Shown: positions 1,462 through 16,073, numbered from the stretch's first letter. The stretch: 16,073 nucleotides of DNA from a virus (IMGVR_UViG_2923307698_000005); one strand, 5' to 3'. Program-made: numbers and translations. The notes: generated by a model not told the origin, from the sequence alone.

Positions 1462-1580
1462 ATATGTCCTTTTATCACCATATCAAGACAAGCCATTGAT
1501 TTAATTAAATAATCTTCACTGAAAAAAGTGCCAAAAATCGCAAATTGACTACACCATTAACTACACCGTTCGGTGCACCG

Positions 1581-1610
1581 TATGAAACAACGTGGAACAA
1601 ATAGACACAA
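1581..1610 (+). repeat. Site A: three 10-bp-phased direct repeats with an AACAA core (tatgAAACAA cgtgGAACAA atagACACAA)
   Basis: Read directly. Shares the 15-mer AACAACGTGGAACAA with site B (9049-9063). Confidence 0.4.
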
Positions 1611-1923
1611 GAAATATACAGGCGGATCATCTTTCCAGGGGGAAGCGCACCAATTCATGAGGGGCGTTAATGTCTATATGGGGATCCCCACCTACCGGAA
1701 TTTTTTTCCGGTTAAACGTTAATCAGGCTGGTGGGCTTTACCTGTTCGGTAGGTGTTATGATAATCGTAATACCTTTCCCCCAATGGGGTAAAAGCATCA
1801 ACCGTAACGAAAGTCGTTATGGTTGCCACTGATACCCCAAATTTGGGTATCACGAGTAAGCCCCAAAATCTGGGTGTTACTCTTACTACCCAAACTACGG
1901 GTAGTTTCCGTAGTTTCATGGTC

Positions 1924-1943
1924 GAGTTGCAGATCTGCAACTC
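1924..1943. repeat. Perfect 20-bp palindrome GAGTTGCAGATCTGCAACTC
   Basis: Reverse complement is identical to the forward sequence, centred on AGATCT. Confidence 0.9.
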
Positions 1944-2197
1944 CCCCATTAACCACAGGCGAATTTCCGCCTTCGGTCATTCCTTAATCATCTGCGTAAT
2001 CATAATGATTATTCAGCAAGCGCAATTTTGCGCTTTGCTTAAAGTTCAGCGAGTTACCGCGCCGACTTCCTCAAATTGAGGTTTCCGAAAATATCAGCGG
2101 GTTAGCGATTAAGCTGACCATTAATTAAACTGCGAAAATGTCGTAGTTGTGAGGGGTGTAGCCAACCTATTTTTGGGCCGTCGGGAATATCAACCAG

Positions 2198-2479
2198 TTA
2201 CCGCCGCAACCGCTCCGGCTTCTTCCAGTGGTACGTTATTTTCTCCTTCTCCCGATACATCTCCACGCGGCGACGGTAGGCCAGCAACTCAAGAACTCTG
2301 GTTCGTATGTTGCGCATATCCACGCCATTAAGTTCTATACCATCACGGCGCATCACCTCAGCAACAACACGCGCATAGTTTTCGGCTGTCACGCTGTCCG
2401 GCTGCGTGGCCTGTTCGTCAGCCTGCTGGCTGATTCCGGCAACGCGGCGGATTAATCCCGTTATTTCGGCTTCTGTCAT
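2198..2479 (-). CDS. Hypothetical protein (93 aa), last gene of the packaging operon
   Basis: ATG start at 2479 with GAGG upstream; lies 14 bp downstream of the terL stop on the same strand. Basic C-terminus (HWKKPERLRR). No family recognised. Confidence 0.5.
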   Translation of the reverse strand: MTEAEITGLIRRVAGISQQADEQATQPDSVTAENYARVVAEVMRRDGIELNGVDMRNIRTRVLELLAYRRRVEMYREKEKITYHWKKPERLRR

Positions 2480-2492
2480 GCTGCTGACCTCA

Positions 2493-4154
2493 TTACACCC
2501 CGCTAAATTCTTCCAGTTTCTGGCGGTGGCTGTCGCTTATATCAAAAGCAAAATCCTCATGCTCTGCCTGGAATGTACCAAACGCCATCAGCGCCGCCAC
2601 GCTCGGGTCTATCTTGTTCGGTGATTTTTTCTTGTTCGGCTTGATATTGGCGTTCGCGTCACTCTGCATCACGACGTTACTCATCGACCAGGACAACACC
2701 GGATCGCCACGATGCACAATCACCCTGCGGTTAACAAAAACTTCGAACGATTTCGCCGCCGGACTGAATCTGAGGTAGGTTTGCGGGAACGGCTCCACCT
2801 CAAAACCTGCCCCCTGTAATTGCGTTCTGAGATGCGTGGCGTTCCACGTATCAAAGCCCACCAGCCTGATATTAAATTTCTCCGCGTCCTGCATGATGTC
2901 ATCTCTGATCCGGTCGTAATCAATGCAGTCGCCAGGCGTTGTGCGTATCCAGCCTGCTTTAGCCCACTGACGATAGATGGCGCGGTTTTTATTGGCGGGG
3001 TTCTGTAGCTGAAATTCCGGCAGATAGTGACGGGAAACCAGCATAATGGTTTTACCGACCGGAAAGGCATAGCACACGCTGGAAATATCGCTGGTTGATG
3101 ATAAGTCCAGCCCCGCGTAACACTCCTGGCCGTGTAAATCTTCCTCCGTGAACGTTCCGGCACACTCAGCCCATGCGCCGTTACCCATCCACGGGGTAGC
3201 CCCCTGGCACCAGATATTAAATCGCTTTGTCATCATCTCCACCCACTGCGACGGAATACCCCGCGCTTTCTGGATGGTTGAGGCCAGTTTTTCACGATCG
3301 ACGGAAACATCAATATTAGGGTTCGCCTTTATCCACATCGCCGGATCATCAACCTCGTTTTCGTCGTCCAGTTCGTAAATCAGTACAAAAATTGAATCGT
3401 TAACCTCTTCGCCGTCCAGGATCTGGCAGCAATAATCATAGTGCTGCTTACAGGCTGAAACGACGTTGCTGCCTGATGTGGTAATGGCAAATAACAGCCC
3501 TTCGGGACGTGCGCCCATCCCCAGCTCAAGCGCGGAATAAACGCCGTTATCGGGGTGCAAGTGGTATTCGTCCACGATGGAAAGGCTGGGGTTTGTTCCC
3601 TCGATGGTTGCCGCTTTTGCTGCCAGCGGCTTTAACAGGCTGTTGCTTTTCGGGTGTATCACCTTATGCGCCTGAATATTCACCCGCCTGCGTAACGGTC
3701 GGGATAAAAGGCACATCTGACGCGCATCATCAAAGACGATCCGCGCCTGGTCACGGCTCACCGCTGCGGTGTAGATATCCTGCTGACCGTTCTCCATAAT
3801 CAGAAACCAGTTAGCCAGAATCGCGGCGGTCGTTGATTTCGCATTTTTGCGCGGCACTTCGATAAAGGCGCTCGTATATTTGCGCCGTCCGGTGGCCTTA
3901 ACCTTAAAGCCGAGGATGCACGCAAAGGCGAACTGCTGCCACGGCTCCAGCTCAATGGGTCTGCCACGCATCGGCCCTTTTACGTGCGGGCACACCCTGG
4001 AAAAGGCAATAAACCGATCCACAACCTCACGATCGAACGTGTAAAGGGGGCTTTTAAGGTCCGAAAAGTACCGTTTAACGGCCTGTTTCAGCCGTTTACA
4101 GGCCGGAATTTTGCCCGTTTTTACGTCTTCTGCGTACTTATTCCAGGCGGTCAA
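2493..4154 (-). CDS. Terminase large subunit (553 aa)
   Basis: Translation has an ATPase P-loop-like motif (VPRKNAKST), a Walker B-like SIVDEYH, and a C-terminal nuclease-like region, as in HK97-type TerL. The only in-frame start that keeps the conserved N-terminus is TTG at 4154 with AGGA six nt upstream; it overlaps the terS 3' end by 17 nt. Confidence 0.9.
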   Translation of the reverse strand: MTAWNKYAEDVKTGKIPACKRLKQAVKRYFSDLKSPLYTFDREVVDRFIAFSRVCPHVKGPMRGRPIELEPWQQFAFACILGFKVKATGRRKYTSAFIEVPRKNAKSTTAAILANWFLIMENGQQDIYTAAVSRDQARIVFDDARQMCLLSRPLRRRVNIQAHKVIHPKSNSLLKPLAAKAATIEGTNPSLSIVDEYHLHPDNGVYSALELGMGARPEGLLFAITTSGSNVVSACKQHYDYCCQILDGEEVNDSIFVLIYELDDENEVDDPAMWIKANPNIDVSVDREKLASTIQKARGIPSQWVEMMTKRFNIWCQGATPWMGNGAWAECAGTFTEEDLHGQECYAGLDLSSTSDISSVCYAFPVGKTIMLVSRHYLPEFQLQNPANKNRAIYRQWAKAGWIRTTPGDCIDYDRIRDDIMQDAEKFNIRLVGFDTWNATHLRTQLQGAGFEVEPFPQTYLRFSPAAKSFEVFVNRRVIVHRGDPVLSWSMSNVVMQSDANANIKPNKKKSPNKIDPSVAALMAFGTFQAEHEDFAFDISDSHRQKLEEFSGV

Positions 4155-4494
4155 GCTCGTCCTCTTCTTCTGTTTCCGGTGGATTTTTACGGCGGCTTAT
4201 CGGGTCAAAACCGAGCAAGGAGGCCATTTTTATCATCACTCTTTCCGCGTCGGATTTCGCGCTTAATGCGGGGTTTCTGCTCTCTCCGCCCTGACTGTTA
4301 ACAATGCTGAACCCGCGCGCCGCAAGGTCTGCGACGGCTTTCCGGTATATCGAGTAATTGACGCAATACAGTTCCAGATTGCTCCAGTCGGCGGGAGTCA
4401 GGTCACCCCGTTCCGCAAGCTGCCGCGATTTTTCCCGCCACTGCTTCACGGCGATATCATCCAGGTAGGCGGGGGCTTTCGGTGGTCTTGCCAT
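4138..4494 (-). CDS. Terminase small subunit, P27-like (118 aa)
   Basis: ATG at 4494. Sits directly upstream of and overlapping terL. Translation resembles the P27-family small terminase (DLTPADWSNLELYCVNYSIY) with an acidic C-terminal tail. Confidence 0.8.
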   Translation of the reverse strand: MARPPKAPAYLDDIAVKQWREKSRQLAERGDLTPADWSNLELYCVNYSIYRKAVADLAARGFSIVNSQGGESRNPALSAKSDAERVMIKMASLLGFDPISRRKNPPETEEEDELDRLE

Positions 4495-4539
4495 GCTTAT
4501 TTTTTCGCCAGATTATTTTTCAAAAAATTCCCGTGCATA

Positions 4540-4610
4540 AAAATTTGAGGAGGCGGTCGGTGCCCGGCGGGGTCGGGTTTGTCCTGAAAACGCCCCCCAC
4601 CCCGTCATAC
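4540..4610. other. Candidate cos (cohesive-end) packaging site: GC-rich tract between the HNH gene and terS
   Basis: GGAGGCGGTCGGTGCCCGGCGGGGTCGGGTTTGTCC...CGCCCCCCACCCCGTC, 50-110 bp upstream of the terS start. The HNH-cos-terS arrangement is typical of HK97-like cos phages. Positional inference only. Confidence 0.3.
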
Positions 4611-4783
4611 AGCCTCATCAGCGATTGCGGAAACATTCCATAACCTCGCGGTCACGGTCGGTTAATCGCTTCGCTGTGATGCGTTCTGCGCATCCTGACG
4701 CTTTATCTTTATGCCCTGTTTCCTGTGTCTTCCATGCGTCACGCTGCCTTATAAGTCCACGGATAAGGCGGTTTTGTTCCCGC

Positions 4784-5224
4784 TCATTCATCAGCGTCAT
4801 ACATCCAGTTATTGCGGTTAGCGGCCCGTTCTTCCTCTTCACGAAATCCACCTGCGGCACGCTTACTTTTTGTTGCCGGATCAAGCCATTTCGTTTTCTG
4901 GTTATGGCACGCCTGACACAATGGTTGATGGTTCCATTCGGGCCAGAAGAGAACATCATCACCGCCATTAATCGGGATAATGTGATCCACCACCACGGCG
5001 GGCGTATATATCCCCTTCTCAAGGCATCGCACGCATAACGGGTTTTTACTCAGATACATGGCGCGGTATTTGTCCCACTGTCTGGAGTACCCACGCGCGC
5101 GGCGGTGTCCTCGTCTGGCATCCTCTGCACGCCATGCCGCCCGCCTGTGCTCCTCACACTTGCCGGACTTCACGCGCCTGTTACAGCCTGGTTCTGTGCA
5201 TCGTCTTAATGGTTGCCACGGCAT
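4784..5224 (-). CDS. HNH endonuclease, terminase-associated type (146 aa)
   Basis: Cysteine and histidine zinc-finger-like HNH motifs (CVRCLEKG, VDHIIP, NHQPLCQACHNQKT). Lies between the head-tail connector and terS. Confidence 0.85.
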   Translation of the reverse strand: MPWQPLRRCTEPGCNRRVKSGKCEEHRRAAWRAEDARRGHRRARGYSRQWDKYRAMYLSKNPLCVRCLEKGIYTPAVVVDHIIPINGGDDVLFWPEWNHQPLCQACHNQKTKWLDPATKSKRAAGGFREEEERAANRNNWMYDADE

Positions 5225-5520
5225 CAGTACACCCCCACATCACGGTAAGCCGTCCAGAGTGCACCAATCGTCATGGGTACGCGTGTTTTTGCGTTATCCG
5301 CGACAATCTGGCGATTTTCATACAGGTGAGCGATAAACATCATGCAGCCAATCTTTATGGCTGGCGTGAACTCCAGCCCGTCATCAAAGCGCCTGCCTAT
5401 GTGTATCTGGCACGCCTCAAGCGATGCGGCAATGTATCCGCTGATTAACTGGTCTTCCTCGTCGCCATCGATGCGGCAATGGAGTTTCACTTCTTCCAGG
5501 GTGATAAGTTCTTCTGTCAT
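5224..5520 (-). CDS. Head-tail connector protein, gp6-like (98 aa)
   Basis: Size, position after the head closure gene, and translation consistent with the gp6-like connector family. Its ATG overlaps the upstream stop (ATGA). Confidence 0.65.
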   Translation of the reverse strand: MTEELITLEEVKLHCRIDGDEEDQLISGYIAASLEACQIHIGRRFDDGLEFTPAIKIGCMMFIAHLYENRQIVADNAKTRVPMTIGALWTAYRDVGVY

Positions 5521-5855
5521 TTTTCCGCGCCCTCACGACAAAGAATTTCAAGGCGTGTCCTGGCGGCATCCGGCAGCGGCTGCCCGATGATATTCAGTAC
5601 ACGCCCCGCCAGCGGCCCCGTATTGACCTTTATCCGGCTGGTGGCGTTGATGTCCTTCCTGTAGCGTATCCATACCCTTACCGTTCCAGTCGCCAGTTCT
5701 GCACCCGATGAAATGGCCTCCTTGCTGCTGATCATGTTCACGCTTGCCCAGAGTGTGTGACCGTCCACCCACGTTTCGAGTATTTCGCCCGTCATGGCTC
5801 TGGTCTGTTTCAGGGTCTGAATCGTTACCCTGTCACGCAGTCGCCCTATGTTCAT
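5517..5855 (-). CDS. Head closure / head-tail joining protein (112 aa from the ATG at 5855)
   Basis: Translation MNIGRLRDRVTIQ...VRVWIRYRKDI resembles the phage head-tail joining family. The track ORF starts at 5897, but the ATG at 5855 forms an ATGA overlap with the portal stop and has GAGGGA upstream, so 5855 is preferred. Confidence 0.65.
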   Translation of the reverse strand: MNIGRLRDRVTIQTLKQTRAMTGEILETWVDGHTLWASVNMISSKEAISSGAELATGTVRVWIRYRKDINATSRIKVNTGPLAGRVLNIIGQPLPDAARTRLEILCREGAEK

Positions 5856-7063
5856 TCCGGTTTTTCTCCCTCGCTGATTTTTACTTCCTGTTTCCATGCC
5901 TGGCTGAACTCATCACCACCATCACGCGGTGACAGTCCTTCACGTTCGCGGGCTTCGTTCGGACACATAACGCCGGATTTGATGCCGCGCTCATAGGTGG
6001 CAAAGCGTTCGCCAGGTGTGGCCCGTAACAGGTCCGCGCTGTCAAACTCCACCTGATACCGGATACCAGGTACAGGCGAGGCCACCAGCAGGGCGTTTTT
6101 TATCTGCTGCTCAAAGTTCGCCAGCCACGGGCGCATCGTCATGGTGAGAAATGCGCGGCTTGCCTCGCTGAAATTGCTGTAGGTGCTGTTGCTGTATTCC
6201 TGCAAAAAAATCGGCGAGACGTTGAACATTCTGGCGATGTCTTCAATGGTGAAGCGACGGGAGGCCAGCCATTCAGCATCCTGATTACTCATGCCCAGCT
6301 GCTGATAGCTCATACCCCCTTCAAGGATGGGCGTTTTTCCGGCGTTTCTGGCCCCTTTGTAGCGTTCCAGTGCGGCTAATGCCTGTTTGCCCTTCACGCC
6401 GTCCAGCCATTCGCCTGACGTGATAACCCCTGCCGCCATCATGCCATCACGCATCACGCTCGCGCCGTGGCGTTGTTGGGCCAGCCCAAGCCCCAGCGAT
6501 TCGCGGCAGATGGTTACAGGTGAGCGCCCCATAAAACCGTCATCCGTGGAGTAACGAAGGTGGAGAACCTCCCACGGTAAATAGTTGCGGGTGTTTCCGG
6601 TGTAGGCGTCAGTGATGCAGTAGCGCCAGTTATGCTCACCTGTCTGCTCAACGTTCACCGACTGCGGCGGGTAAGGATGCAAAGCGACCGGAAAACCATC
6701 ACGCCCCCACTGAATCACCGCATAAGCATTACCGTTTAACAGGCAGTGGCGGATCATCATTCGCTTAAACTGGTAGGGGGTTTGCCATGCGTTCGGGCGC
6801 TCGTTGAGGATGTGATCGACCGGATGAGAATCAAGCCACTCGCGGGCCTCCTTCCCCTTCTCATTGCGTACCAGGTACAGGTAACACGGCATGGTAGCCA
6901 CCGCCTCAGAGATGACCGTCACGGCGTTCATGACGGCGGGCAGTGATTCCGCTGTCCCCGATGATACGTACTCACCCGCCCCCGTGTTCGATGTGCCAGC
7001 CAGCGCCATAAACTCATCAAGCGTCATGCTGCGCTGCTCTTTTTTTCTTCTGAAAGGCCACAT
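5852..7063 (-). CDS. Portal protein, HK97 family (403 aa)
   Basis: Size, position and translation consistent with HK97-type portals. ATG at 7063 with GGGGG upstream. Confidence 0.85.
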   Translation of the reverse strand: MWPFRRKKEQRSMTLDEFMALAGTSNTGAGEYVSSGTAESLPAVMNAVTVISEAVATMPCYLYLVRNEKGKEAREWLDSHPVDHILNERPNAWQTPYQFKRMMIRHCLLNGNAYAVIQWGRDGFPVALHPYPPQSVNVEQTGEHNWRYCITDAYTGNTRNYLPWEVLHLRYSTDDGFMGRSPVTICRESLGLGLAQQRHGASVMRDGMMAAGVITSGEWLDGVKGKQALAALERYKGARNAGKTPILEGGMSYQQLGMSNQDAEWLASRRFTIEDIARMFNVSPIFLQEYSNSTYSNFSEASRAFLTMTMRPWLANFEQQIKNALLVASPVPGIRYQVEFDSADLLRATPGERFATYERGIKSGVMCPNEAREREGLSPRDGGDEFSQAWKQEVKISEGEKPE

Positions 7064-7064
7064 A

Positions 7065-7637
7065 TCACACCCCCGCTAAATCCGCCCACCAGCGGCGATT
7101 ATCCGCACGCGGCATTTTTTCGGGGTGCTGCTCATACAGGGAACGGCGGGCCAGCTCCACGTCGGAATCAGGGTAAGCCGGTACGGATGTAACGGTAATT
7201 TCGTACAGTTCCGCCACCAGCACGGTGCGCACGCATGGATCTGTTGTGGTATCCCATACATCCTTACGGGAACGAAAGCCAAAGCTCATGCCGGATATAT
7301 CACCTCGTTTAACCAGTTCGATAACGTCGCGCCCTGTACTGGTATCCGGTGGGGTCAGTTCAAAGCGTAACCCTGTTTCGTCCTCTTCCAGTTTCAGCGT
7401 GCCGGAACGGGTGCGCCCCAGTAACATGCTGTGGTCATGCTCATACAGGCCGCGAACGTCATTACCCGCCGCAAGCCATTCAGTAAACGCCCCCCGCTGG
7501 AATTTTTCGTAAAACTCACCCCATAACAGTTCTGAAAGCTTATCCCAGCGAACAATGTAGCCCGTCAGCGTACCGGCTCCGCTGGTGGTGATTTCCGATG
7601 ACCGGATTTCCATACTCTTCATAATTTTTTCACCCAT
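7065..7637 (-). CDS. Prohead maturation protease, HK97 family (190 aa)
   Basis: Lies between the capsid and portal genes; translation consistent with HK97 prohead protease. Start is ambiguous between ATGs at 7637, 7622 and 7613. Confidence 0.8.
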   Translation of the reverse strand: MGEKIMKSMEIRSSEITTSGAGTLTGYIVRWDKLSELLWGEFYEKFQRGAFTEWLAAGNDVRGLYEHDHSMLLGRTRSGTLKLEEDETGLRFELTPPDTSTGRDVIELVKRGDISGMSFGFRSRKDVWDTTTDPCVRTVLVAELYEITVTSVPAYPDSDVELARRSLYEQHPEKMPRADNRRWWADLAGV

Positions 7638-7676: not shown

Positions 7677-8834
7677 TTAATCGTCGTCCTGTGGCAGTTC
7701 CAGAATCTTGATCGCGTTCGAATCCACCACGCCACCGCCTAAATATTTCTGCGCGAAAATTTTGATGAAGCCCGGCTCTGTGAGGTTGTCCGGTCTGGTG
7801 CGAACACCTGTTTCGTGATCAACAATGTAGTAACCGCGTTTGAAGTCACCCAGGGCAATAACGTTATCCGGCATAAACTCCAGATATTCGACCGGAAGGC
7901 CCAGCAACGTATCAGGATCACCCGCCTGTAAACGGTCACGCCAGATGTAATCACCGTTCGCGTTCTTCACCTTCTGGAGTTTTGCCGCCGTCGTGGAGTT
8001 AACCACCCAGACCGCGTTTTTGCGGTATTTTTTACGTAATGCAAATTTCAGGTCGATCAGCGGGTCCGCAGATGTCCACGCCAGAGATTCGGAAGGTTTA
8101 ATTACCTGCAACGTACCAAAATCACGCTCTTTGTCGTTCTTCTCTGCACGGGGTACGGATAGAAAGCCTTTTGCTTTTTTGTCACCGTCGCCCACAACCA
8201 GATCGCTTTCTTCGGTTTCCGTGAAGGTGTCGCCAATCTCGCCCGTCAGCCATGAAAGGATGTCCACATCGGAAAAATCCACGATTTCCTGCGTGGTGCG
8301 CGGGTACGCATAGACCGGATACAGCTTAATGCTCACCTCGTTAATCTGCGGGGTGCTGGTCTGTTCGCGTGCCTTACCCTCTTCACCGTGGTTAACGGTC
8401 GCACCGCCAGCGGAAACAAGCTGCTTAAACTCGTTGCTGCTGATTTTCTTCACGGTACAGATGCGGCGCATGGTGGATTCATCCGTCAGCATTCGCATGA
8501 TTTCGGTGTTCAGTTCGGGGATAACGGTATAACCACCATCAGCGGGAACGCCTGTACTTAATGCGCGGGTTTCACCTGTCAGAATGTAGTGACGTAGTTC
8601 GGCGGGGTCAGTGGTCTGGCTGTTTTTGCCTGGTTTACTGCGCTCTTCGTCAGCAACGGCCTCAAGGCGGGAGATGTCTTTATCGAGGGATTCAGCTTTA
8701 GCGCGTAATTCGTCAAATTTTGCGCCCTCAGCATCGTTAAGGCTGCGGTTTTCTTTTTCCGCGTTCTCCAGCATGTCGCGCATCTGATTTTTAATGGCGG
8801 TTTTCTGCTGGCGTAATTCGATTATTCTCGGCAT
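7677..8834 (-). CDS. Major capsid protein, HK97 fold, with N-terminal delta (scaffold) domain (385 aa from the ATG at 8834)
   Basis: N-terminal coiled-coil-like region (IIELRQQKTAIKNQMRDMLENAEKENRSLNDAEGAKFDELRAKAESLDKDISRLEAV) followed by a capsid body. The track ORF extends to a GTG at 8882 with no ribosome-binding site; the ATG at 8834 has AGGA upstream. Confidence 0.85.
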   Translation of the reverse strand: MPRIIELRQQKTAIKNQMRDMLENAEKENRSLNDAEGAKFDELRAKAESLDKDISRLEAVADEERSKPGKNSQTTDPAELRHYILTGETRALSTGVPADGGYTVIPELNTEIMRMLTDESTMRRICTVKKISSNEFKQLVSAGGATVNHGEEGKAREQTSTPQINEVSIKLYPVYAYPRTTQEIVDFSDVDILSWLTGEIGDTFTETEESDLVVGDGDKKAKGFLSVPRAEKNDKERDFGTLQVIKPSESLAWTSADPLIDLKFALRKKYRKNAVWVVNSTTAAKLQKVKNANGDYIWRDRLQAGDPDTLLGLPVEYLEFMPDNVIALGDFKRGYYIVDHETGVRTRPDNLTEPGFIKIFAQKYLGGGVVDSNAIKILELPQDDD

Positions 8835-9121: not shown

Positions 9122-9394
9122 TTATCTGTCCTGGTAATTTCGCCATATTTCATCACCAGCACCATCCATACCCATTTCGGCATAAGTGCGATCGACCGCC
9201 TTTTTCAGGTCTCCGTAATTATCCGGCGGCTCCGGTGGCCTCTGTGCCTTCCTGGAACATTCCAGCCGTCGCATCGTGATGTGATGCCGTTCCTTGTCTG
9301 TCTCCACCAGTTGCATGACTTCACCCCATCGCGCCGACGCTCTCCGGTAAAAGCCTTTCGCCTCCAGTTCTTCCGCTATGCGGTCATGTACCAT
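9122..9394 (-). CDS. PerC-family transcriptional regulator-like protein (90 aa from the ATG at 9394)
   Basis: Translation MVHDRIAEELEAKGFYRRASARWGEVM...TDKER...RR..CSR matches my recollection of the PerC/Pch signature. The track start at 9403 is a GTG; the ATG at 9394 is preferred. Confidence 0.55.
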   Translation of the reverse strand: MVHDRIAEELEAKGFYRRASARWGEVMQLVETDKERHHITMRRLECSRKAQRPPEPPDNYGDLKKAVDRTYAEMGMDGAGDEIWRNYQDR

Positions 9395-9406: not shown

Positions 9407-9817
9407 TCAGAACGGAATATCATCACCGTAAGGGTCATCGCCTCCCGCTGGTGGCTGATTACCCTGTGTGCCTGTGGTCTTGCGTCGGCTCCCACCAGGA
9501 CGTGCCGCACGGGCACTGATTACGCTGTCTGCAATAACCTGATAACCCTGCCGCGTTTCCCCGTTCTGTCCGGTCCACTGGCTGACCTGCATCGTGCCGG
9601 ATACGCTGGCAACGTCGCCTTTTTGATGTTTAGCCAGGAAGTCGGCCTGCTTACCAAATGCGATGACCGATAGCCATAACGTCGCCTGTCCATCCTGTGC
9701 CTGGCTGCATGGCAGCGATACCGCCATACGCGCCAGCGTCATCGGTGTACCCTTGCTGGTCTGTTTTACCTGCGGGTCGTCCACCAGCCGCCAGTAAGCT
9801 GCAATTTGTGCTGTCAT
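9407..9817 (-). CDS. Single-stranded DNA-binding protein (136 aa)
   Basis: OB-fold-like core (WLSVIAFGKQADFLAKHQKGDVASVSGTMQVSQWTGQNGETRQGYQV), a glycine/proline/glutamine-rich linker, and a C-terminal DDIPF tail as in bacterial SSB. GAGGTGG ribosome-binding site. Confidence 0.75.
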   Translation of the reverse strand: MTAQIAAYWRLVDDPQVKQTSKGTPMTLARMAVSLPCSQAQDGQATLWLSVIAFGKQADFLAKHQKGDVASVSGTMQVSQWTGQNGETRQGYQVIADSVISARAARPGGSRRKTTGTQGNQPPAGGDDPYGDDIPF

Positions 9818-9826: not shown

Positions 9827-10132
9827 TCAGTGAAGCGATCCGGCGTTGTTCTTTTTCATCTCTTCCATCATTTTTTCAGTGAGCATTACGCACTGAAAAC
9901 CCATGTTTTTGATGTCTACGGGCTTCATGCCTTTATCAGTGGATATCACAGGCAGAATATCCTGATACACATCGCGGTCAGGGTAACTAAGCACACAAAG
10001 CGCCCATGATGCCACGGGTGAGGATCCTTCGTCTGTTTCAACCCACCAGCCTGGTGTAGCTGCGCTTATTTGCTGAATCGTGATCCGTCCGTTGTGCTTG
10101 TAAAGTTTTTCACCAAATTTTGGTTCGCTCAT
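9827..10132 (-). CDS. Hypothetical protein (101 aa)
   Basis: ATG with GGAG upstream; ATGA overlap with the upstream gene's stop. No family recognised. Confidence 0.5.
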   Translation of the reverse strand: MSEPKFGEKLYKHNGRITIQQISAATPGWWVETDEGSSPVASWALCVLSYPDRDVYQDILPVISTDKGMKPVDIKNMGFQCVMLTEKMMEEMKKNNAGSLH

Positions 10133-10380
10133 GATTCCAACTCTCCGGTTTTAACGTTGATGGTTGTTACCTGTTCCGCTTCGGCAATCTCCCGTTCTGT
10201 CAGCGTGGCAAAGTTTGCCGCCGCCGTGGTCATGAATGCGCTTATCAGGTCGGGATGTTCCTTCGCGTATCCTTCCCGCGTGTGGCGGTCTATCGTTCTG
10301 ATTGCCACCTTTAAGGTGTGCTCAGTCATGTCTAACGCTTTATATTTTGGCTCTGTTCTGTCTCTGCGTTTTTGGGTCAT
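10129..10380 (-). CDS. Hypothetical protein (83 aa from the ATG at 10380)
   Basis: The track ORF extends to a GTG at 10410 that lies inside the iteron array; the ATG at 10380 is preferred. No family recognised. Confidence 0.45.
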   Translation of the reverse strand: MTQKRRDRTEPKYKALDMTEHTLKVAIRTIDRHTREGYAKEHPDLISAFMTTAAANFATLTEREIAEAEQVTTINVKTGELES

Positions 10381-10384: not shown

Positions 10385-10585
10385 CGCAACCTCTCACTTT
10401 TTCGCCTCACTTTTTCAAGCGTCTCACTTCGTCGCAGTTGGGATTTTTGGTTTTTCTATGTGTGTGTTTCATAAGTATTTTTTTACCCCTCACTTTTGAG
10501 GATGTATACAGGTCGAAAAGTGAGGGGGAGCGGGCTAATTTTGGCCCTCTTTCTATCCCCCTCGCTTTTGCTCCTCACTTTTATA
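10385..10585. repeat. Iteron-type replication origin: seven copies of CTCACTTTT (one inverted, one CTCGCTTTT variant) flanking an AT-rich spacer
   Basis: Copies at 10393-10401, 10406-10415, 10423-10430, 10489-10497, 10517-10525 (inverted), 10561-10569 (variant) and 10574-10582. The AT-rich core is 10441-10485. Lies immediately 3' of the replication ATPase gene. Confidence 0.6.
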
Positions 10586-11981
10586 GCGGCGCTACATCAT
10601 CCCCATCGATACGAATAACCCCATCTTTTTCCAGCTTGTACAGCCAGCGCCGGAAGTTTTTCATTTCATACCCCAGCTTTTTCATGTCATCACGTAACAT
10701 CTGGATCGTGCACTTGTCGCCGTTCTGTGTGCGTGAACGGATGCACCCCCATAGCGCGGTATGGTTTTCCGTCTTGTTCCCTGCCTCCTCGATGCGCTCC
10801 AGTTCAACAGGAGGGCGCGGATCATCCACCACCACCAGCGACGTGATTAATTCACCGTCAGCGTCGGTAAAAAGCTCCACCACGCGTAAGTCATATGCGG
10901 CTTCTTTGAGTTCCTCCGCGTCCTTCATTTTGGTGCATGAGATAACCAGCGCTTCGCTTCCTGCGTCCTCCCTGCGTATCCGGTATTCAGCATCCAGCGA
11001 AGCACGAAATGCACTGGAACCGCGCGCGCCTTTCGTCTCATCCTTGCCGGAATGGTGAACCACCAGCACCGTGGCCCCTGTGCGTCGTTTCAGTTCGTCA
11101 CAACCACGGATAAACGCCCCCATATCACGGGAATCATTTTCATCATTCCCACCAAAGCAACGCGCCAGCGTATCCAGAATAATCATGCGTACAGGTTTAC
11201 CCGTTTCCCGCTCCACCTGACGGGCAGCGATAACCATTTCATCAACATCAAGCGGGGCAGCCGGAAAGATGGGGCGGTTTACCAGATACAGATTTTTCAC
11301 CTGCTCATCGTGCACAACCTCCCAGGCTTTTACACGACGCGGAACACCTATACCGCCTTCACCAACCACATAGAGAACCGCACCATGTGCAACCCTGCGG
11401 CCTCCCCACTGGCGACCAGTGGCAACATGGCACGCCCACGATCCGGCAAGGAATGATTTATAGGACCCGCTAGCCCCGTATATGCTGCATAGCGATACCG
11501 CCGGAATAATCCCCTTAACCACGTAATCCAGTTGCGTGTCGTATCCGGTAGATCCAACGCTCATCGGTAGCGTGGTTTTTCGCTGGTGGTTTTTTTCTTC
11601 CGCCGGCTCTTTCCCGCGCACCCGTTCCAGGTATTCGCGCCAGTTCTCCCGCATATGGCTGTGCATCCCTTCGGGGTAATAATTCGCATCAGTTACACCC
11701 GCCGCCGCCAGCTTGTGCGCAATGGCATTAATATTTGATGGCCTGATGTGGCCTGCCTTGTACAGCCGGACACAATAGCGCCCCTCGTCGATGATTCTCA
11801 GGTCTGCCAGTTCATCCAGTTGATCATCAGCCAGCACAACGGGAGGCACATTATCGCCAGCCAGTCGCCCGTCCTGTTCCTGCCACTGTTTCGCATGTGC
11901 CCAGGCATCACTACCCGCAAAAATAATGACTTCGGTCATCTTGTCGTAAGGCTGTTTTTTTAAGTTCGGTGCGCTTTTCAT
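10581..11981 (-). CDS. Replication protein: RecA-fold (RepA/DnaB-like) ATPase, probable helicase or primase-helicase of the satellite (466 aa)
   Basis: Walker A GASGSYKS and Walker B-like MIILDT in a RecA-like core. Sits between the accessory ORFs and the iteron origin, as the pri-rep gene does in PICI and P4-like elements. Confidence 0.75.
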   Translation of the reverse strand: MKSAPNLKKQPYDKMTEVIIFAGSDAWAHAKQWQEQDGRLAGDNVPPVVLADDQLDELADLRIIDEGRYCVRLYKAGHIRPSNINAIAHKLAAAGVTDANYYPEGMHSHMRENWREYLERVRGKEPAEEKNHQRKTTLPMSVGSTGYDTQLDYVVKGIIPAVSLCSIYGASGSYKSFLAGSWACHVATGRQWGGRRVAHGAVLYVVGEGGIGVPRRVKAWEVVHDEQVKNLYLVNRPIFPAAPLDVDEMVIAARQVERETGKPVRMIILDTLARCFGGNDENDSRDMGAFIRGCDELKRRTGATVLVVHHSGKDETKGARGSSAFRASLDAEYRIRREDAGSEALVISCTKMKDAEELKEAAYDLRVVELFTDADGELITSLVVVDDPRPPVELERIEEAGNKTENHTALWGCIRSRTQNGDKCTIQMLRDDMKKLGYEMKNFRRWLYKLEKDGVIRIDGDDVAPL

Positions 11982-12277
11982 TTCTTGCCCCTGAATCCGT
12001 TAACCATGGTTTTCAGCTTCTGGATGTTTGCCCGTGCCCTGGCGTTGCTGGTGGGCACGTTATGCGGCGCGGTCTGTACCAGAGAAAAATCACGCCGGAA
12101 CTGATAAACAGGCATCACGCAATCATATTCGTAACCTTCACGGCGGTAGGTTACGCGCCGTTCTTCCACGCCCTTAATCATTACCGTGCCGCCGTACTGG
12201 TCGCGGTAAATATCACCGCGCGTAAATTTAGGGTGAGTGTTGCCACTGGCAGTTAAGCCAGAATATTTAAGTTTCAT
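11978..12277 (-). CDS. Hypothetical protein (99 aa)
   Basis: ATG with GGAGA upstream; its stop overlaps the replication gene start (ATGA). No family recognised. Confidence 0.5.
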   Translation of the reverse strand: MKLKYSGLTASGNTHPKFTRGDIYRDQYGGTVMIKGVEERRVTYRREGYEYDCVMPVYQFRRDFSLVQTAPHNVPTSNARARANIQKLKTMVNGFRGKK

Positions 12278-12282: not shown

Positions 12283-12516
12283 TTATTCTCCGGTGTGCTG
12301 TTCTTTATATCTGTCGTGCAATAGATCTATTTCTTGCAGTTCCATTATTACAGGCTCAAGAAGCGTTATTAATGCCGTGACAATTCTTGATTTTTGTTTG
12401 TCGCGTTCATTGTCGCCAAGTGTTTCAAGACATATGCGCAATATTTCGTACATACCTTCAGCGTAAGCAAGGGCACTAAATGCGCGGTCTATTGTTTGGT
12501 GGTAAATATCACGCAT
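12283..12516 (-). CDS. Hypothetical protein (77 aa)
   Basis: ATG with GAGGA upstream; coupled to neighbours. No family recognised. Confidence 0.5.
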   Translation of the reverse strand: MRDIYHQTIDRAFSALAYAEGMYEILRICLETLGDNERDKQKSRIVTALITLLEPVIMELQEIDLLHDRYKEQHTGE

Positions 12517-12973
12517 GGCTTACATCCTCAGGAAATTTTCTTCTATAACGCGCCTCTGCCACATATTCCGCATAATCGGCGGCGATATTCAGTACATCAA
12601 GCCCCGTTGATTTATATTCTCTCGTGGAAAGTAAGAAAAAAGCCGCTCTAATAAGTTCTGGCATTGACGAAAGCGCATCAGCCGCATCATCAGGAACGCC
12701 GGAAAATTCCTGTTTCAGGGAATTAAAACGATCATCACGCATAACCCCCCCATTTTCACAATCAGCAATCAGGATAGCTTTGGCCTCATTCAGCGCCGTA
12801 TCAGCACTAAATTGCATGACAGCCAGTGAGTGAGGAACGAAAGCACCGGCATATTCTGTTTCGCTGGTGGCGTGCTTATGTTCCCTGTCCGCGATAACAG
12901 AAATATCAATCAGCGCGTGCATCAGCGTTTTGATGGCTTCGGCGGCTGCGTCCGGTGTGGTTTTATTGTGCAT
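12509..12973 (-). CDS. Hypothetical protein (154 aa)
   Basis: ATG with AGGGGA upstream; overlaps the downstream gene start by 8 nt. No family recognised. Confidence 0.5.
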   Translation of the reverse strand: MHNKTTPDAAAEAIKTLMHALIDISVIADREHKHATSETEYAGAFVPHSLAVMQFSADTALNEAKAILIADCENGGVMRDDRFNSLKQEFSGVPDDAADALSSMPELIRAAFFLLSTREYKSTGLDVLNIAADYAEYVAEARYRRKFPEDVSHA

Positions 12974-13175
12974 AAAGCATCCCCTGAATATTCGTGTTAA
13001 TCATTCCGGCACGTTTTGTGATTTCCTGTAATGATTCCCTTGTGGCGACAATTGCTTCATCTGGTAAGTGGTAATTACACACCACGCGACCTTTATCCAC
13101 ATTGACCAGTAGCTGCCCTGTGAATTTCTCACGAAACTGAATGCGGTTAAGGTCAGTAAGTGACAGATTAATCAT
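12963..13175 (-). CDS. Hypothetical protein (70 aa from the ATG at 13175)
   Basis: AGGAGG six nt upstream of the ATG at 13175; the start overlaps the upstream stop (ATGATTAA). The track's longer ORF to 13217 has no ribosome-binding site. Confidence 0.45.
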   Translation of the reverse strand: MINLSLTDLNRIQFREKFTGQLLVNVDKGRVVCNYHLPDEAIVATRESLQEITKRAGMINTNIQGMLYAQ

Positions 13176-13365
13176 GGCGCACCTCCTGACGAATACGGGC
13201 GGCAAATACAGCAACACAACCGGACGGGCAACGGTTACGCGCTTCGCGTTCCGTCCAGGCGGTTACGTGGATGATTTGAGATTCTCCGGCACTCAGTGCC
13301 AGAAAACGCCACACAAAGGCCGTTTGTGTGTGTACAAGGTGTGGTATATGATTTACGGCAACCAT
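13168..13365 (-). CDS. Hypothetical protein (65 aa from the ATG at 13365), first gene of the minus-strand early operon
   Basis: AGGAG five nt upstream of the ATG at 13365. The track's extension to 13467 would run through operator palindromes and a hairpin. Confidence 0.4.
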   Translation of the reverse strand: MVAVNHIPHLVHTQTAFVWRFLALSAGESQIIHVTAWTEREARNRCPSGCVAVFAARIRQEVRHD

Positions 13366-13494: not shown

Positions 13495-13674
13495 GTGTCA
13501 ATACACAAAAACGAAAGGCGTGGTAATCCTCCGTTCCAGTTCCGTTTAGATCCTGACTTACGGGAAAAGATGGAAAAGGCACAACAACAGGACGGCGATG
13601 ATTCTCTTGCTGCCTGGATAAAGCGAATAATCCGCAAAGAATTACAGCAACGCGGCATAGAACCCAAAGGATAA
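13495..13674 (+). CDS. Arc-family ribbon-helix-helix DNA-binding protein (59 aa, GTG start)
   Basis: Not in the ORF track (under 60 aa). GTG at 13495 with GAGG ten nt upstream. Translation VSIHKNERRGNPPFQFRLDPDLREKMEKAQQQDGDDSLAAWIKRIIRKELQQRGIEPKG matches the Arc-type pattern: a PPxFxLRL beta-strand followed by two helices. Confidence 0.6.
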   Translation: MSIHKNERRGNPPFQFRLDPDLREKMEKAQQQDGDDSLAAWIKRIIRKELQQRGIEPKG

Positions 13675-13731
13675 AAACTATCAGCGCCGTGGTGTGAGGA
13701 ACTACGGCGCATTTCTTTACAGGAGTAGACA

Positions 13732-13917
13732 ATGAACAACGAAGAATTACGGGAAATCGCATTATCCATACTTGAAAGACAGGTAGAAAAAAAATTAAGA
13801 GAAATGGATGAAATGCCTGACCATGAACAGGAAGCAAGGCCAAAAAGATTTGCCCTTGAGGATTTTCTTAAAAATTGCCCAAGAAAGATGAGATCGTGGC
13901 GTTGTTGTCCGCCCTGA
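13732..13917 (+). CDS. Hypothetical small protein (61 aa), cotranscribed with the Arc-like gene
   Basis: ATG with AGGAG six nt upstream; charged, helical-looking translation; followed by an intrinsic terminator. Confidence 0.5.
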   Translation: MNNEELREIALSILERQVEKKLREMDEMPDHEQEARPKRFALEDFLKNCPRKMRSWRCCPP

Positions 13918-14074: not shown

Positions 14075-14145
14075 GCTCATATTTATTTTTTGTGCAGCAG
14101 GTTAATCGTTCACAAAGGCGCTCAGGTAACTGGGCGCTTTTTGTT
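14075..14145 (+). ncRNA. Candidate small RNA, about 70 nt, with its own promoter and terminator
   Basis: Extended -10 promoter TGaTATAAT at 14060-14068, predicted start near 14075, and a strong intrinsic terminator at 14118-14145 (stem GCGCTCAG/CTGGGCGC with one G-U pair, loop GTAA, then TTTTTGTT). No plausible ORF inside. Confidence 0.3.
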
Positions 14146-14291
14146 ATGCCTGAAAAACCCCAATTTTGTTGTTTTTCAGTTTCACCAGGGCGAACGAATC
14201 CCCGCCCACGTTCTGGCGTATATTCAATCTTCATGGTTATAGCTCTGTGTTCAGATGATTGATGTGTGGCGGCTGTGTGCCGCCAGCGTGA

Positions 14292-14480
14292 TTAATGAAC
14301 TGCCTTGCAGCTATCCTTCCAGGCCAGAACCTCGGATAAAGACCAGCCAACGGAACGACCGCCAAGTTTACGACGTGATGGGAATTGTCCGGCCTTTTCC
14401 AGGCGGTAGCGACACGTACGGCTAAGGCCGGTTAGTTTTTTGCATTCTTTTTCACGTATAAACCGATCAGTGCTTAACAC
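14292..14480 (-). CDS. alpA: AlpA-family transcriptional regulator / excisionase-like protein (62 aa, GTG start)
   Basis: Translation LTGLSRTCRYRLEKAGQFPSRRKLGGRSVGWSLSEVLAW matches the AlpA/Xis-type helix-turn-helix pattern. The ORF has no internal ATG; the GTG at 14480 is preceded by AGGGGG. Lies immediately downstream of the integrase gene. Confidence 0.8.
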   Translation of the reverse strand: MLSTDRFIREKECKKLTGLSRTCRYRLEKAGQFPSRRKLGGRSVGWSLSEVLAWKDSCKAVH

Positions 14481-14750
14481 TATTGCCCCCTTTCGTTTCT
14501 TAAAGAGTCATCAGGTGTCTTATTGTGTCGTATTGTTCCCGCTAGAGTGATGAATGGCAAATACTGAGGATGTATGATTTACAGAAAATGAAACAGTAAG
14601 AATAAAATCTTTTAAATTCATGTTAATACAAAGGCATAAAATATTGTTCCATGCCTTTTTTCTCGCTCTTTAAAGAGTGATTCGCTAGTGTATAAAAACC
14701 AGTAACACATTAAAAATCAGCCACTTATAAATCCGTACGCTTTTTCGCCT

Positions 14751-14800
14751 CTTGTTCGTAGTTGTTCCACATTGTTGCTCATTGTTGCACGTTGTATCTG
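14751..14800 (-). repeat. Site C: four to five 10-bp-phased (C/G)AACAA repeats on the minus strand (gtgCAACAAt gagCAACAAt gtgGAACAAc tacGAACAAg)
   Basis: Read directly. The minus-strand string GTGGAACAACtACGAACAA matches site B (GTGGAACAACcACGAACAA) at 18 of 19 positions. Lies 44-93 bp downstream of the integrase stop. Confidence 0.4.
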
Positions 14801-14843
14801 TTCGCATATCCAGTATGCGCATACTGAAAAAACACGAAAAAAA

Positions 14844-16073
14844 TTATTTTCTTCTGGCTACTGGTAGTGCGGTTACGTTTTCATGTGTTCCCGCCAGTAT
14901 CCCTAACCGCTCCATCCACATATCCAGCGCATTGCGTTTAGCATCCAGATAACGGGAATGATTATAAACTCGCTGCATTCCTGGCATCTGGTGGCCTGTA
15001 AGCTGCTCCACGACGTGAGGATCCACGCCTAAATCGTTCAGCATCGTTGTAAAGGTGCGCCGGATGTCATGTAGTGACCAGTGAGGGTGATTTAGCCTCC
15101 TGTGCGCTAATCTGCCGTACTGCGACACGCTTGTTTCCTGTTTCACTTCCCCCAGCAATAAGCCCGTGTGCCTGTTCTGCTCCACCAGCTGCGTGACGAA
15201 CGGCAGTATTGCTTCCGGTATGGGCCGGAATATGGCTACCTTCGTTTTGCTGTGCTCCTTCGGAACAGTCCAGAGCATTTCGGTAAAATCCCACTCGCCG
15301 ATCTCCGATAACCTAAGTTCGACCGTCCGGCATCCGAACACAATCAGGAGGCGGATTAGCGCGATGTAGTAGGGGGAGAATATTTTTTTGTCCAGTGCCT
15401 GCAATAATTCGCCAAGTTCTTTGTTGCTTAAGACACGCTCGCTTATATCCGGTTTTTTCCCAACGTCCGCCACACTCATATCATCAAGAACGTTGCTGAT
15501 TGCATAGCGCCGCTTCCGGCAGAACTTAAGCGCCTGCTTGCATGTCTGTAGCAGGAACCCGGCGGAAACAGGGGCTTGCTTTGCCACCCGATCAAAACAG
15601 GCCAGCCAGTGCCGTAGCTCGCATTTATCCAGCGGCATAGGGCCAATGTGCTGTATTACGTGATTATTTAGCCGCTTTTTCAGTGGGTCATAATCCACAC
15701 GGTTTTCCTTTGCGTACGACTCAAGCCAGTAGGTGAGCGCATCACCAACCGTTACCGGCTTTAACGCTTCCTGTACGGTGTAATTAAGCTCATGACGTGG
15801 ATTTTTCCCCTCTGCCAGCCATGCGCGACACTGGGCGGCTTTTTCCCTGGCTGATTTCAGGCTCAGATCAGGATAATTTCCCAGCTTAATGCGTTCCGGT
15901 GGTGCCCCCCTTCCCGTTCCGGCCCTGTAAGTGAAATACCAGGTTAAAAGGCCACTGGTTGAATGCCTGACGCTCAGGTTTCCACCGTCATTAAGAAAGG
16001 CTGTTTTTTGGGCGGGTGTGCCGTTGATTTTCCTCAGCTGTGTATCGCTCAGTTTGTTAAGTGCTCTGCTCAT
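14844..16073 (-). CDS. Tyrosine site-specific integrase, P4-like (409 aa)
   Basis: Catalytic-domain motifs near the C-terminus (HDIRRTF, GHQMPGMQRVYNHSRY) and an N-terminal DNA-binding region. The ATG is the reverse complement of the last three bases of the window. Confidence 0.93.
   Translation of the reverse strand: MSRALNKLSDTQLRKINGTPAQKTAFLNDGGNLSVRHSTSGLLTWYFTYRAGTGRGAPPERIKLGNYPDLSLKSAREKAAQCRAWLAEGKNPRHELNYTVQEALKPVTVGDALTYWLESYAKENRVDYDPLKKRLNNHVIQHIGPMPLDKCELRHWLACFDRVAKQAPVSAGFLLQTCKQALKFCRKRRYAISNVLDDMSVADVGKKPDISERVLSNKELGELLQALDKKIFSPYYIALIRLLIVFGCRTVELRLSEIGEWDFTEMLWTVPKEHSKTKVAIFRPIPEAILPFVTQLVEQNRHTGLLLGEVKQETSVSQYGRLAHRRLNHPHWSLHDIRRTFTTMLNDLGVDPHVVEQLTGHQMPGMQRVYNHSRYLDAKRNALDMWMERLGILAGTHENVTALPVARRK

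Follow-up and report, generated by a model that had tools for sequence, protein, structure and literature searches.

We analysed a window of 16,073 nucleotides, the whole stretch of DNA considered here, and found directly after E. coli phoQ an island of an estimated ~14.8 kb that is, with high confidence, an intact capsid-forming PICI (cf-PICI) of the EcCIEDL933 lineage that occupies the attB between phoQ and roxA, where phoQ has its 3' end. Its genes follow the order integrase, AlpA, RepA-type helicase with iterons, SSB and PerC, and then a packaging block of major capsid protein, S78 protease, portal, head closure protein, gp6-like connector, HNH endonuclease, TerS and TerL; the int, alpA, rep, head, and packaging genes all lie on the minus strand (Table 1). 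The cf-PICI class was described and experimentally dissected in 2022–2025 (Alqurainy et al., bioRxiv 10.1101/2022.09.08.507074; He et al., bioRxiv 10.1101/2025.02.11.637232). As judged from its sequence, the cf-PICI reading of the island is correct but already known, and the island is ordinary because it is a close relative of the characterised prototype EcCIEDL933 at the same chromosomal site. With the class, a prototype at the same locus, the life cycle, and the capsid structure all published, its importance as a discovery is small. Its value lies in correct annotation: RefSeq gives generic 'phage' names and prophage finders report a small prophage, where the island class is that of a mobile satellite able to carry DNA between strains and species using borrowed tails.

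Gene content and packaging module

Gene-class calls were made with Pfam curated cut-offs, and every class listed in the earlier note (integrase, AlpA, replication ATPase, and the capsid and packaging set) is present and passes them. The cfPICI model of SatelliteFinder has 11 core components and forbids tail and holin components (PMC10085698); searches with Pfam and PHROGs recovered 11 of 11 core components and none of the forbidden ones. The island has the expected size of ~10–17 kb and an att core at its phoQ end, the second core being seen in relatives, and carries a tyrosine integrase at one end with an AlpA-type regulator adjoining it, a replication initiator and origin of its own, island-encoded major capsid, prohead protease, and portal proteins, both PF05521 and PF05135, and HNH, TerS, and TerL (PF01844, PF05119, PF03354 + PF20441). 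No tail, tape-measure, baseplate, holin, or endolysin family was matched by Pfam or PHROGs in the ORFs tested, in agreement with the earlier description of the element as free of tail, baseplate, tape-measure, and lysis genes, and the minus-strand coding density of the island leaves no space for further genes.

Table 1. Annotated features of the window, with positions counted from its first nucleotide
Feature	Position	Strand	Evidence or remark
phoQ, host sensor kinase, intact	1..1461	+	99.9% identical to K-12 phoQ; annotated phoQ in relatives
att core AAATATGTCC, phoQ-side junction	1460..1469	.	10 bp; overlaps phoQ stop codon
Conserved non-coding segment, hairpin-rich	1494..1850	.	most columns invariant among six elements
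Probable integrase arm-type region	1543..1617	.	ATTAACTACACC x2, then GAAACAA/GGAACAA motifs (tandem repeat)
~48-bp unit x3	2042..2203	.	AATATCArCnrGTTAsCG + short hairpin; elements differ in the number of copies
93-aa conserved hypothetical, last gene of packaging operon	2198..2479	-	phrog_1561; 87% identical to EDL933 homologue
Large terminase TerL	2493..4154	-	PF03354 TerL_ATPase + PF20441 TerL_nuclease; 98.6% identical to EcCIEDL933
Small terminase TerS, P27 family	4138..4494	-	PF05119 Terminase_4; 100% identical to EcCIEDL933
Probable cos region, G+C-rich non-coding gap	4495..4617	-	between HNH/small ORF and terS
60-aa conserved small ORF	4618..4800	-	phrog_3173; hypothetical protein in relatives
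HNH endonuclease, packaging cofactor	4784..5224	-	PF01844; 99.3% identical to EcCIEDL933
gp6-like head-tail connector	5224..5520	-	PF05135; 100% identical to EcCIEDL933
Head completion/closure protein (head-tail adaptor in the papers)	5517..5855	-	PF05521; 95% identical to EcCIEDL933
Portal protein	5852..7063	-	PF04860, E = 9e-91; 99.5% identical to EcCIEDL933
HK97-type prohead serine protease S78	7065..7637	-	PF04586; 96.8% identical to EcCIEDL933
Major capsid protein, HK97 fold	7677..8834	-	PF05065; 380/385 (98.7%) identical to PDB 9GYI
Terminator-like hairpin + T-run	8842..8871	-	ends at capsid start codon
PerC-family regulator, accessory gene	9122..9394	-	PF06069, E = 3e-43; 88% identical to EDL933 homologue
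Single-stranded DNA-binding protein SSB	9407..9817	-	PF00436
101-aa hypothetical protein	9827..10132	-	phrog_27268; no EDL933 match
83-aa hypothetical protein	10129..10380	-	phrog_1231
Replication origin, seven iterons of CTCACTTTT type, one inverted	10389..10582	.	flank AT-rich stretch 10440–10485
Replication initiator/helicase, RepA-type (AAA_25)	10581..11981	-	PF13481, E = 2e-43; PHROG helicase + primase families
DUF4222 protein	11978..12277	-	PF13973
Early small genes: 77-aa, 154-aa, ~70-aa proteins + Icd-like (13168–13365)	12283..13365	-	PHROGs
Two short genes: 59-aa Arc-like (13495–13674), 61-aa (13732–13917)	13495..13917	+	
AlpA regulator	14292..14480	-	PF05930, E = 6e-17; 98% identical to EcCIEDL933 AlpA
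int-alpA intergenic control region	14481..14843	.	TTGTTGCACA x3.4, GTGTCGTATT x2.2, GGAACAA motifs
Tyrosine integrase	14844..16073	-	PF13356, PF00589, PF22022; 97% identical to EcCIEDL933 integrase

The window and EcCIEDL933 share 97.1% DNA identity over 2186–9120 and 96.9% over 14094–16073, and the packaging proteins align over their full length with identities of 95–100%, except for the 93-aa hypothetical protein at 87%. The true start of the major capsid protein is the ATG at 8834. Its counterpart in PDB 9GYI forms the 47.5-nm, T=4 capsid of EcCIEDL933 solved by cryo-EM (He et al., bioRxiv 10.1101/2025.02.11.637232), from which it differs by five substitutions, none of them in residues 227–248 (the 'connector loop'). 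The hairpin and T-run at the capsid start codon have a possible regulatory role. The cos site probably lies in the gap upstream of terS: the linear ends of LR881103.1, a 16.5-kb record obtained from virions, fall at a position homologous to ~4581, and HNH-dependent cos phages such as HK97 have the same layout around this region. The hypothetical packaging gene 1792 of the cf-PICI paper could not be mapped onto either small ORF here.

Among 5426 complete E. coli genomes, 406 carry the packaging module, and the tail-less arrangement running from capsid to TerL is also found in Shigella, Citrobacter, Erwinia, and Gilliamella; the module ends in the host genes mug and rpoD at the Citrobacter locus, and no tail or lysis family follows TerL at the Gilliamella locus. 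Homology of the head and terminase genes to HK97-type siphophages (Pfam; PDB matches of portal and capsid) would also be expected of a defective HK97-like prophage that had lost its tail, lysis, and immunity genes and become immobile, but this origin is very unlikely. A tail-less architecture with intact genes recurs in this many genomes and across genera, the capsid-first and terminase-last order comes together with a PICI-type int-alpA-rep module, no remnants of tail, lysis, or immunity genes were found, and the borders are clean att cores by phoQ and roxA. Moreover, the best true-phage homologues of the head closure protein are at most 55% identical, and DNA matches to the module in the phage collection are partial (~65–70% identity), derive mainly from satellite-sized records of 15–16 kb or fragments, and cover at most 56% of its length; no complete tailed phage in that collection carries the whole module. 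The near-identical prototype is experimentally mobile, and helper-dependent, high-frequency transfer in its own small capsids has already been shown.

With classical E. coli PICIs the island has int, alpA, and a replication module in common, and P4-like elements, too, can carry AlpA. The chance that it is a PICI of this classical kind, which forms no capsids, or a P4-like element that reshapes the capsids of its helper is nevertheless negligible, because genes for major capsid protein, protease, portal, adaptor, connector, and TerL all lie on the island itself, a full head module at odds with a P4-like satellite. Portal, adaptor, and connector, all present here, are forbidden in the PICI model of SatelliteFinder (PMC10085698). 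No capsid-remodelling or other P4-type family was matched in Pfam or PHROGs, libraries that are not specific for sid, psu, and delta. The proposal of a capsid-forming, PICI-type satellite with helper tails rather than a degraded prophage is thus borne out by the complete set of cfPICI components and the near-identity to EcCIEDL933, and nothing in the sequence itself speaks against the cf-PICI explanation.

Among the small genes, the early ones match PHROGs of unknown function, apart from the Icd-like protein, which matches a 'transcriptional repressor' PHROG; RefSeq names were taken from the relative L004. Each of the two short plus-strand genes is followed by a terminator-like hairpin, and the pair is ~86% similar to positions 21099–21460 of the relative L001. 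A 286-aa ORF at 13374–14234 overlaps these two genes with their own hairpins and is probably spurious. Ten small proteins gave no PADLOC match to defence systems, and there is thus no evidence for immune cargo.

Insertion site, island ends, and phoQ-side non-coding segments

phoQ is flanking host DNA outside the island. Because the att core takes in the final two bases of the phoQ stop codon, a codon restored by the element, the left boundary is at 1460 and not at 1462. The window ends at the integrase start codon, and the right boundary therefore lies beyond 16073; the earlier placement of the element at 1462–16073 captured the island region, but neither of its exact ends. In four occupied relatives, L001, L003 (EDL933), L004, and L005 (Shigella flexneri), the 10-mer stands on both sides of the element, with the second core 172–181 bp past the integrase and roxA following. 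By comparison with these relatives, the int-side att site of the present island would lie beyond the window, and the flanking direct repeat that the earlier note had predicted is found in all four, with the phoQ-side copy in the window. The empty attB in K-12, the unoccupied junction proposed for comparison, reads AAATATGCCC. In the relatives roxA begins ~250 bp beyond the integrase, so that nothing is hidden past the window; the tail or lysis genes that would have contradicted a satellite are absent there.

In EDL933, EcCIEDL933 is located between roxA and phoQ with the same 10-bp core; we computed its length at 15,461 bp, in agreement with the published 15.4–15.5 kb. Since this phoQ/roxA site also holds EcCIEDL933 and related elements of further E. 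coli strains and of Shigella flexneri, the claim that the phoQ-adjacent site is specific to the present element was wrong, and the novelty it implied does not hold for a published class with a prototype at the same locus. A tRNA scan of the window returned zero tRNA genes, and thus the island is not tRNA-targeting.

The non-coding tail on the phoQ side has two parts. A hairpin-rich segment of ~360 bp, which cf-PICIs integrated elsewhere keep as well, comes before an array of the ~48-bp unit that varies in length (three copies here, at least five in EDL933). One of the six elements sharing the segment is a cf-PICI of O157 strains that is integrated at tqsA. Within the segment, positions 1543–1617 resemble the int-side arm of L001 (23706–23780) with 77% similarity and probably form an integrase arm-type region to which the integrase would bind. 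Changes in the hairpins between element types, as seen by eye, are not complementary, and we therefore make no claim of RNA structure. A search of Rfam at a permissive threshold gave a single chance-level match (14090–14144, E = 0.41, 24 bits against a 50-bit cut-off), and the non-coding stretch 1462–2197 is thus explained by no known RNA family; positions 1470–2197 had zero matches in the phage collection and were therefore not borrowed from the cos or regulatory region of a helper. The tail may serve packaging or regulation, or act through RNA, in a manner so far undescribed. Promoter consensus scans remained at chance level in both regions scanned. The motif GGAACAA occurs eight times against 2.7 expected, a count reached in 2 of 200 shuffles, and clusters in the att arm, between int and alpA, and ahead of the capsid gene; the enrichment is modest and suggestive only, and that of RNRRAACAA was not significant.

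Replication module and proposed life cycle

The iteron origin reported next to the replication ATPase is real: CYTCRCTTTT occurs five times against 0.16 expected, with all copies within 10405–10582, and with degenerate copies included seven iterons form a cluster immediately 3' of the rep stop codon. The motif is CCCACTTTT throughout in L001 and L004, so that all seven iterons have CTCAC here and CCCAC in these relatives, whose Rep proteins diverge from the one here chiefly over the final ~45 aa. This co-variation of iterons and Rep C-terminus argues for selection on a working origin. The specificity class of Rep and iterons may switch by one base, coupled to the last ~45 Rep residues. It is conceivable, though on balance doubtful, that cis-acting features not yet characterised set this copy apart from the prototype, namely its Rep/iteron specificity class and/or a function of the phoQ-side non-coding tail. 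If true, the one-base iteron switch could let two cf-PICIs share a cell without origin competition. Together with the replicon swap, the co-variation is a minor illustration of how replication specificity diversifies while the packaging module stays almost constant.

The differing replication module also bears on whether the island, although intact and able to make heads, is stranded in its present host, neither induced nor mobilised because a compatible helper is missing or the replicon does not respond. Published work on the prototype found no resident prophage of EDL933 acting as helper. We nevertheless regard a stranded island as highly improbable: all genes are full length, the co-variation of iterons and Rep C-terminus among relatives argues for a working origin, and the RepA-type arrangement is common to the closest relatives, with at least 80% of the window covered in 63 complete genomes and a RepA-family helicase annotated in 25 of 25 genomes among the matches listed.

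For this cf-PICI, we infer induction, capsid size, cos position, and tail choice from the published EcCIEDL933 experiments and the near-identity found here. In the prototype, induction depends on alpA, each packaging gene is required, and only the tail genes of the helper are needed (bioRxiv 10.1101/2022.09.08.507074; 10.1101/2025.02.11.637232); tail-less capsids are released, and adaptor and connector set the tail choice. Accordingly modelled, a helper siphophage would switch alpA on, and AlpA and the integrase would recombine the AAATATGTCC cores and so release the island from the chromosome. The RepA-type helicase/initiator would then fire the adjacent iteron origin, assisted by SSB; that replication is helper-triggered is an assumption for this RepA variant, whose module differs from that of the tested prototype. 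The capsid protein, protease, and portal of the island would build small T=4 procapsids, into which HNH, TerS, and TerL would cut and package island DNA at cos, probably between HNH and terS. Connector and head closure proteins would complete the neck, and HK106-type helper tails would complete the DNA-filled, tail-less heads, with lysis likewise depending on the helper.

Comparison with known systems

EcCIEDL933 from E. coli O157:H7 EDL933 shares with the present island the attB, the 10-bp core, the gene order, and the phoQ-side non-coding segment. The two differ in length (~14.8 kb, estimated, against 15.46 kb) and in the replicon, which comprises a 466-aa RepA/AAA_25 protein and CTCACTTTT iterons here but a 710-aa DUF927 protein and 11 copies of TAACCCGCA in the prototype; only the N-terminal ~122 aa of the two Rep proteins are in common (67% identity). 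The island has an extra 101-aa gene and fewer of the ~48-bp units near phoQ, lacks a small gene that the prototype carries between perC and capsid, and differs in its small genes in the DUF4222–alpA interval. The cf-PICIs of RepA type that occupy this site in other E. coli strains, e.g. NZ_AP028094.1 (strain JNE132847) and NZ_CP027462.1 (isolate 07-4299), share the whole architecture including the 154-aa gene, with 95% coverage at 95% identity and a helicase identity of 94%; they differ in the last ~45 aa of Rep and in having CCCACTTTT instead of CTCACTTTT iterons in seven of seven copies, and are mosaic relative to the island in the stretches 1828–2188 and 13400–14090.

Classical E. coli PICIs (EcCICFT073, EcCIED1a) have the int-alpA-rep logic and helper-activated, alpA-dependent induction in common with this group, but lack capsid, portal, connector, and TerL genes and redirect the packaging machinery of the helper, e.g. 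via Rpp. The cos siphophages HK97 and HK106, whose terminase is HNH-dependent, share the HK97-fold capsid, S78 protease, portal, gp6-like connector, and HNH-TerS-TerL with the island, which differs from them in gene order, has low protein identity to them, and is without their tail, lysis, and immunity genes. The capsid of EcCIEDL933 is T=4 without covalent cross-link, in contrast to the T=7 capsid of HK97 type (bioRxiv 10.1101/2025.02.11.637232); the present island, known from its sequence, encodes the nearly identical capsid protein.

Affiliation and gene content

The earlier note had read the element as a capsid-forming PICI-type satellite (cf-PICI) downstream of phoQ. This is supported by the SatelliteFinder cfPICI model (PMC10085698), of which the element has 11 of 11 core components and lacks the tail and holin components that the model forbids, and by near-identity to EcCIEDL933, the prototype cf-PICI of E. 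coli O157:H7 EDL933. DNA identity to EcCIEDL933 is 97.1% over the packaging module (2186-9120) and 96.9% over alpA and int (14094-16073). Packaging proteins are 95-100% identical to those of EcCIEDL933 over their full length, except for a 93-aa hypothetical protein encoded by the last gene of the operon (87%). The capsid protein is identical at 380 of 385 residues to PDB 9GYI, the cryo-EM model of the EcCIEDL933 capsid, which has T=4 symmetry, measures 47.5 nm, and holds a 15.5-kb genome (He et al., bioRxiv 10.1101/2025.02.11.637232).

The minus strand is coding with hardly a break from 2198 to 16073, and the gene inventory of the earlier note was correct in each listed class, as assigned by Pfam at curated thresholds. 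The leftover small ORFs, other than those for an Arc-like protein and an Icd-like protein with matches to 'transcriptional repressor' PHROGs, were affiliated with PHROG families of unknown function; no small ORF matched a tail or lysis family (PHROGs) or a defence family (PADLOC). The longest ORF at 13374-14234 (286 aa, minus strand) is probably not a gene; its amino-acid composition is unusual, and it overlaps a pair of short plus-strand genes (13495-13917), each with its own terminator-like hairpin and one of them encoding the Arc-like protein. In earlier work, the PerC-like genes of EcCIEDL933 and EcCICFT073 were without effect on LEE1 promoter fusions, and a PerC homologue of another PICI represses LEE (PMC11773190).

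Features of the window and stretches compared between elements
Feature	Position	Strand	Basis
PhoQ (host)	1-1461	+	DNA 99.9% identical to E. coli K-12
TerL	2493-4154	-	Pfam
TerS, P27-family	4138-4494	-	Pfam
HNH endonuclease	4784-5224	-	Pfam
gp6-like head-tail connector	5224-5520	-	Pfam
Head completion/closure protein	5517-5855	-	Pfam
Portal	5852-7063	-	Pfam
S78 prohead protease	7065-7637	-	Pfam
Major capsid protein, HK97-family	7677-8834	-	Pfam
PerC-family regulator	9122-9394	-	Pfam
SSB	9407-9817	-	Pfam
AAA_25 (RepA-type) helicase	10581-11981	-	Pfam
DUF4222 protein	11978-12277	-	Pfam
AlpA	14292-14480	-	Pfam
Tyrosine integrase	14844-16073	-	Pfam
Compared Rep/iteron stretches	window 10389-10582 and 10581-10720; L001 16290-16530; L004 12290-12530		

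Insertion site and distinction from a decayed prophage

Homology between the window and E. coli K-12 stops just past AAATATGTCC (1460-1469), a 10-mer overlapping the phoQ stop codon. Four occupied relatives (two E. coli strains, EDL933, and Shigella flexneri) carry one copy of this core at phoQ and another 172-181 bp past the integrase start, the latter followed directly by the K-12 phoQ-roxA spacer (75 bp in K-12, starting TAAATATGCCCATACTTCAC) and then roxA. An empty attB would read GATGAATAAATATG(T/C)CCATACTTCAC. The window ends at the integrase start codon, and the int-side copy of the att direct repeat anticipated by the earlier note, which would lie outside, was placed from the relatives; this gives an element of an estimated ~14.8 kb. 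Genes for tail or lysis past the end of the window, named by the same note as evidence against a satellite, occur in no relative inspected, because only ~250 bp with no other gene separates int from roxA. Its view that site and content are unique to this element was wrong: on the EDL933 chromosome, EcCIEDL933 sits between roxA and phoQ with the same cores at both ends, and the 15,461 bp computed for it fit the published size.

A decayed prophage as the alternative origin was rejected. Of the 5426 complete E. coli genomes searched, 406 carry the packaging module with a coverage of at least 80%. The order capsid-protease-portal-(adaptor)-connector-HNH-TerS-TerL is common to Shigella, Citrobacter, Erwinia, and Gilliamella; downstream of TerL, the Citrobacter locus has a few accessory genes before the host genes mug and rpoD, and the Gilliamella locus has no tail or lysis family. 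No complete tailed phage in the phage collection carries the whole module, which found only partial matches (~65-70% identical), mostly to satellite-sized records of 15-16 kb or short fragments; the head-closure protein shares at most 55% identity with its best homologues from true phages.

The G+C-rich stretch between HNH/small ORF and terS (4495-4617) probably holds the cos site. HNH-dependent cos phages have cos in the corresponding position, between HNH and terS, and the virion-derived record of a related element (LR881103.1, 16.5 kb) has its ends at the homologous position. LR881103.1 is labelled 'Escherichia phage vB_KppS-Ant' and has a cf-PICI architecture; directly after terL comes a 765-aa gene whose annotation is tape measure protein (2036-4333). 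Either this gene is misannotated cargo, or the record is an unusual cf-PICI with one tail-like gene.

Replication origin and non-coding segments

The motif CYTCRCTTTT occurs in five copies, all within 10405-10582 directly 3' of the rep stop codon (0.16 expected in the whole window; 0 of 200 shuffles gave five). With two further, degenerate copies, the origin (10389-10582) comprises seven iterons, one in inverted orientation, that surround an AT-rich stretch. All seven iterons of L001 and L004, E. coli relatives with a RepA-type cf-PICI at the same site, have CCCACTTTT, while those of the window have CTCACTTTT, a one-base change made identically in all copies. Rep is 94% identical between the window and these relatives, with changes concentrated in the last ~45 residues. 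Because the iterons co-vary with the Rep C-terminus, the iteron origin that the earlier note had placed beside rep is confirmed at the sequence level. Such co-variation is the pattern that a working initiator-iteron pair would show, and looks like a coupled switch of origin-initiator specificity between the window element and L001/L004.

Just inside the phoQ-side att lies a hairpin-rich non-coding segment of ~360 bp (1494-1850) that is near-invariant in six elements, including a second cf-PICI of O157:H7 strains, located at tqsA; the segment has no ORF and no match in Rfam or among phages that would account for it. The last gene of the packaging operon is followed by an array of ~48-bp units, each made up of AATATCArCnrGTTAsCG and a short hairpin (2042-2203), with three copies in the window and at least five in the EDL933 locus (L003 34745-35182); the first unit overlaps the stop codon of the 93-aa gene. 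GGAACAA (8 observed vs. 2.7 expected) is a possible binding site of Int or AlpA, with weak statistical support; five copies fall in the att arm (1594), upstream of the capsid operon (9058), and in the int-alpA gap (14533, 14644, 14762). Two terminator-like hairpins with T-runs were observed on the minus strand, one after perC (9098-9115) and one stopping exactly at the capsid start codon (8842-8871). The latter position would fit control of the packaging operon by read-through or antitermination.

Probable life cycle and comparison with EcCIEDL933

We infer the life cycle of the window element from experiments with EcCIEDL933. Induction of the prototype by helper phages HK106 and HK446 is alpA-dependent, its packaging genes are each required for transfer and none for replication, and transfer persists with helper capsid or terminase mutants but fails with tape-measure or major-tail mutants (Alqurainy et al., bioRxiv 10.1101/2022.09.08.507074). 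The prototype releases tail-less capsids already filled with DNA, to which tails from different phages can be added; compatibility is set by adaptor and connector, and EcCIEDL933 takes HK106 tails (He et al., bioRxiv 10.1101/2025.02.11.637232). HK106-type tails are likely partners of the window element, since it shares its connector (100% identity) and its head-closure protein (95% identity) with EcCIEDL933.

The elements differ in their replicons: EcCIEDL933 has a DUF927 protein (L003 24039-26171) followed by 11 copies of TAACCCGCA, whereas the window has the RepA-type protein with CTCACTTTT iterons. The two initiators are related only over the N-terminal ~122 residues (67% identity). A shared N-terminal domain beside unrelated C-terminal parts and iterons indicates domain-level shuffling of satellite initiators; gene flow in the cf-PICI replication module was noted earlier by the SatelliteFinder authors (PMC10085698). 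Compared with EcCIEDL933, the window also has an additional 101-aa gene, lacks a small gene that separates perC from the capsid gene in the prototype, and is mosaic in the small genes that lie between DUF4222 and alpA. This exact mosaic was found in no complete RefSeq E. coli genome (best match 95% coverage, 95% identity); at least 80% of the window is covered in 63 of these genomes, and the closest relatives have the RepA-type arrangement at the same site. The element is a routine member of a family already characterised experimentally and structurally.
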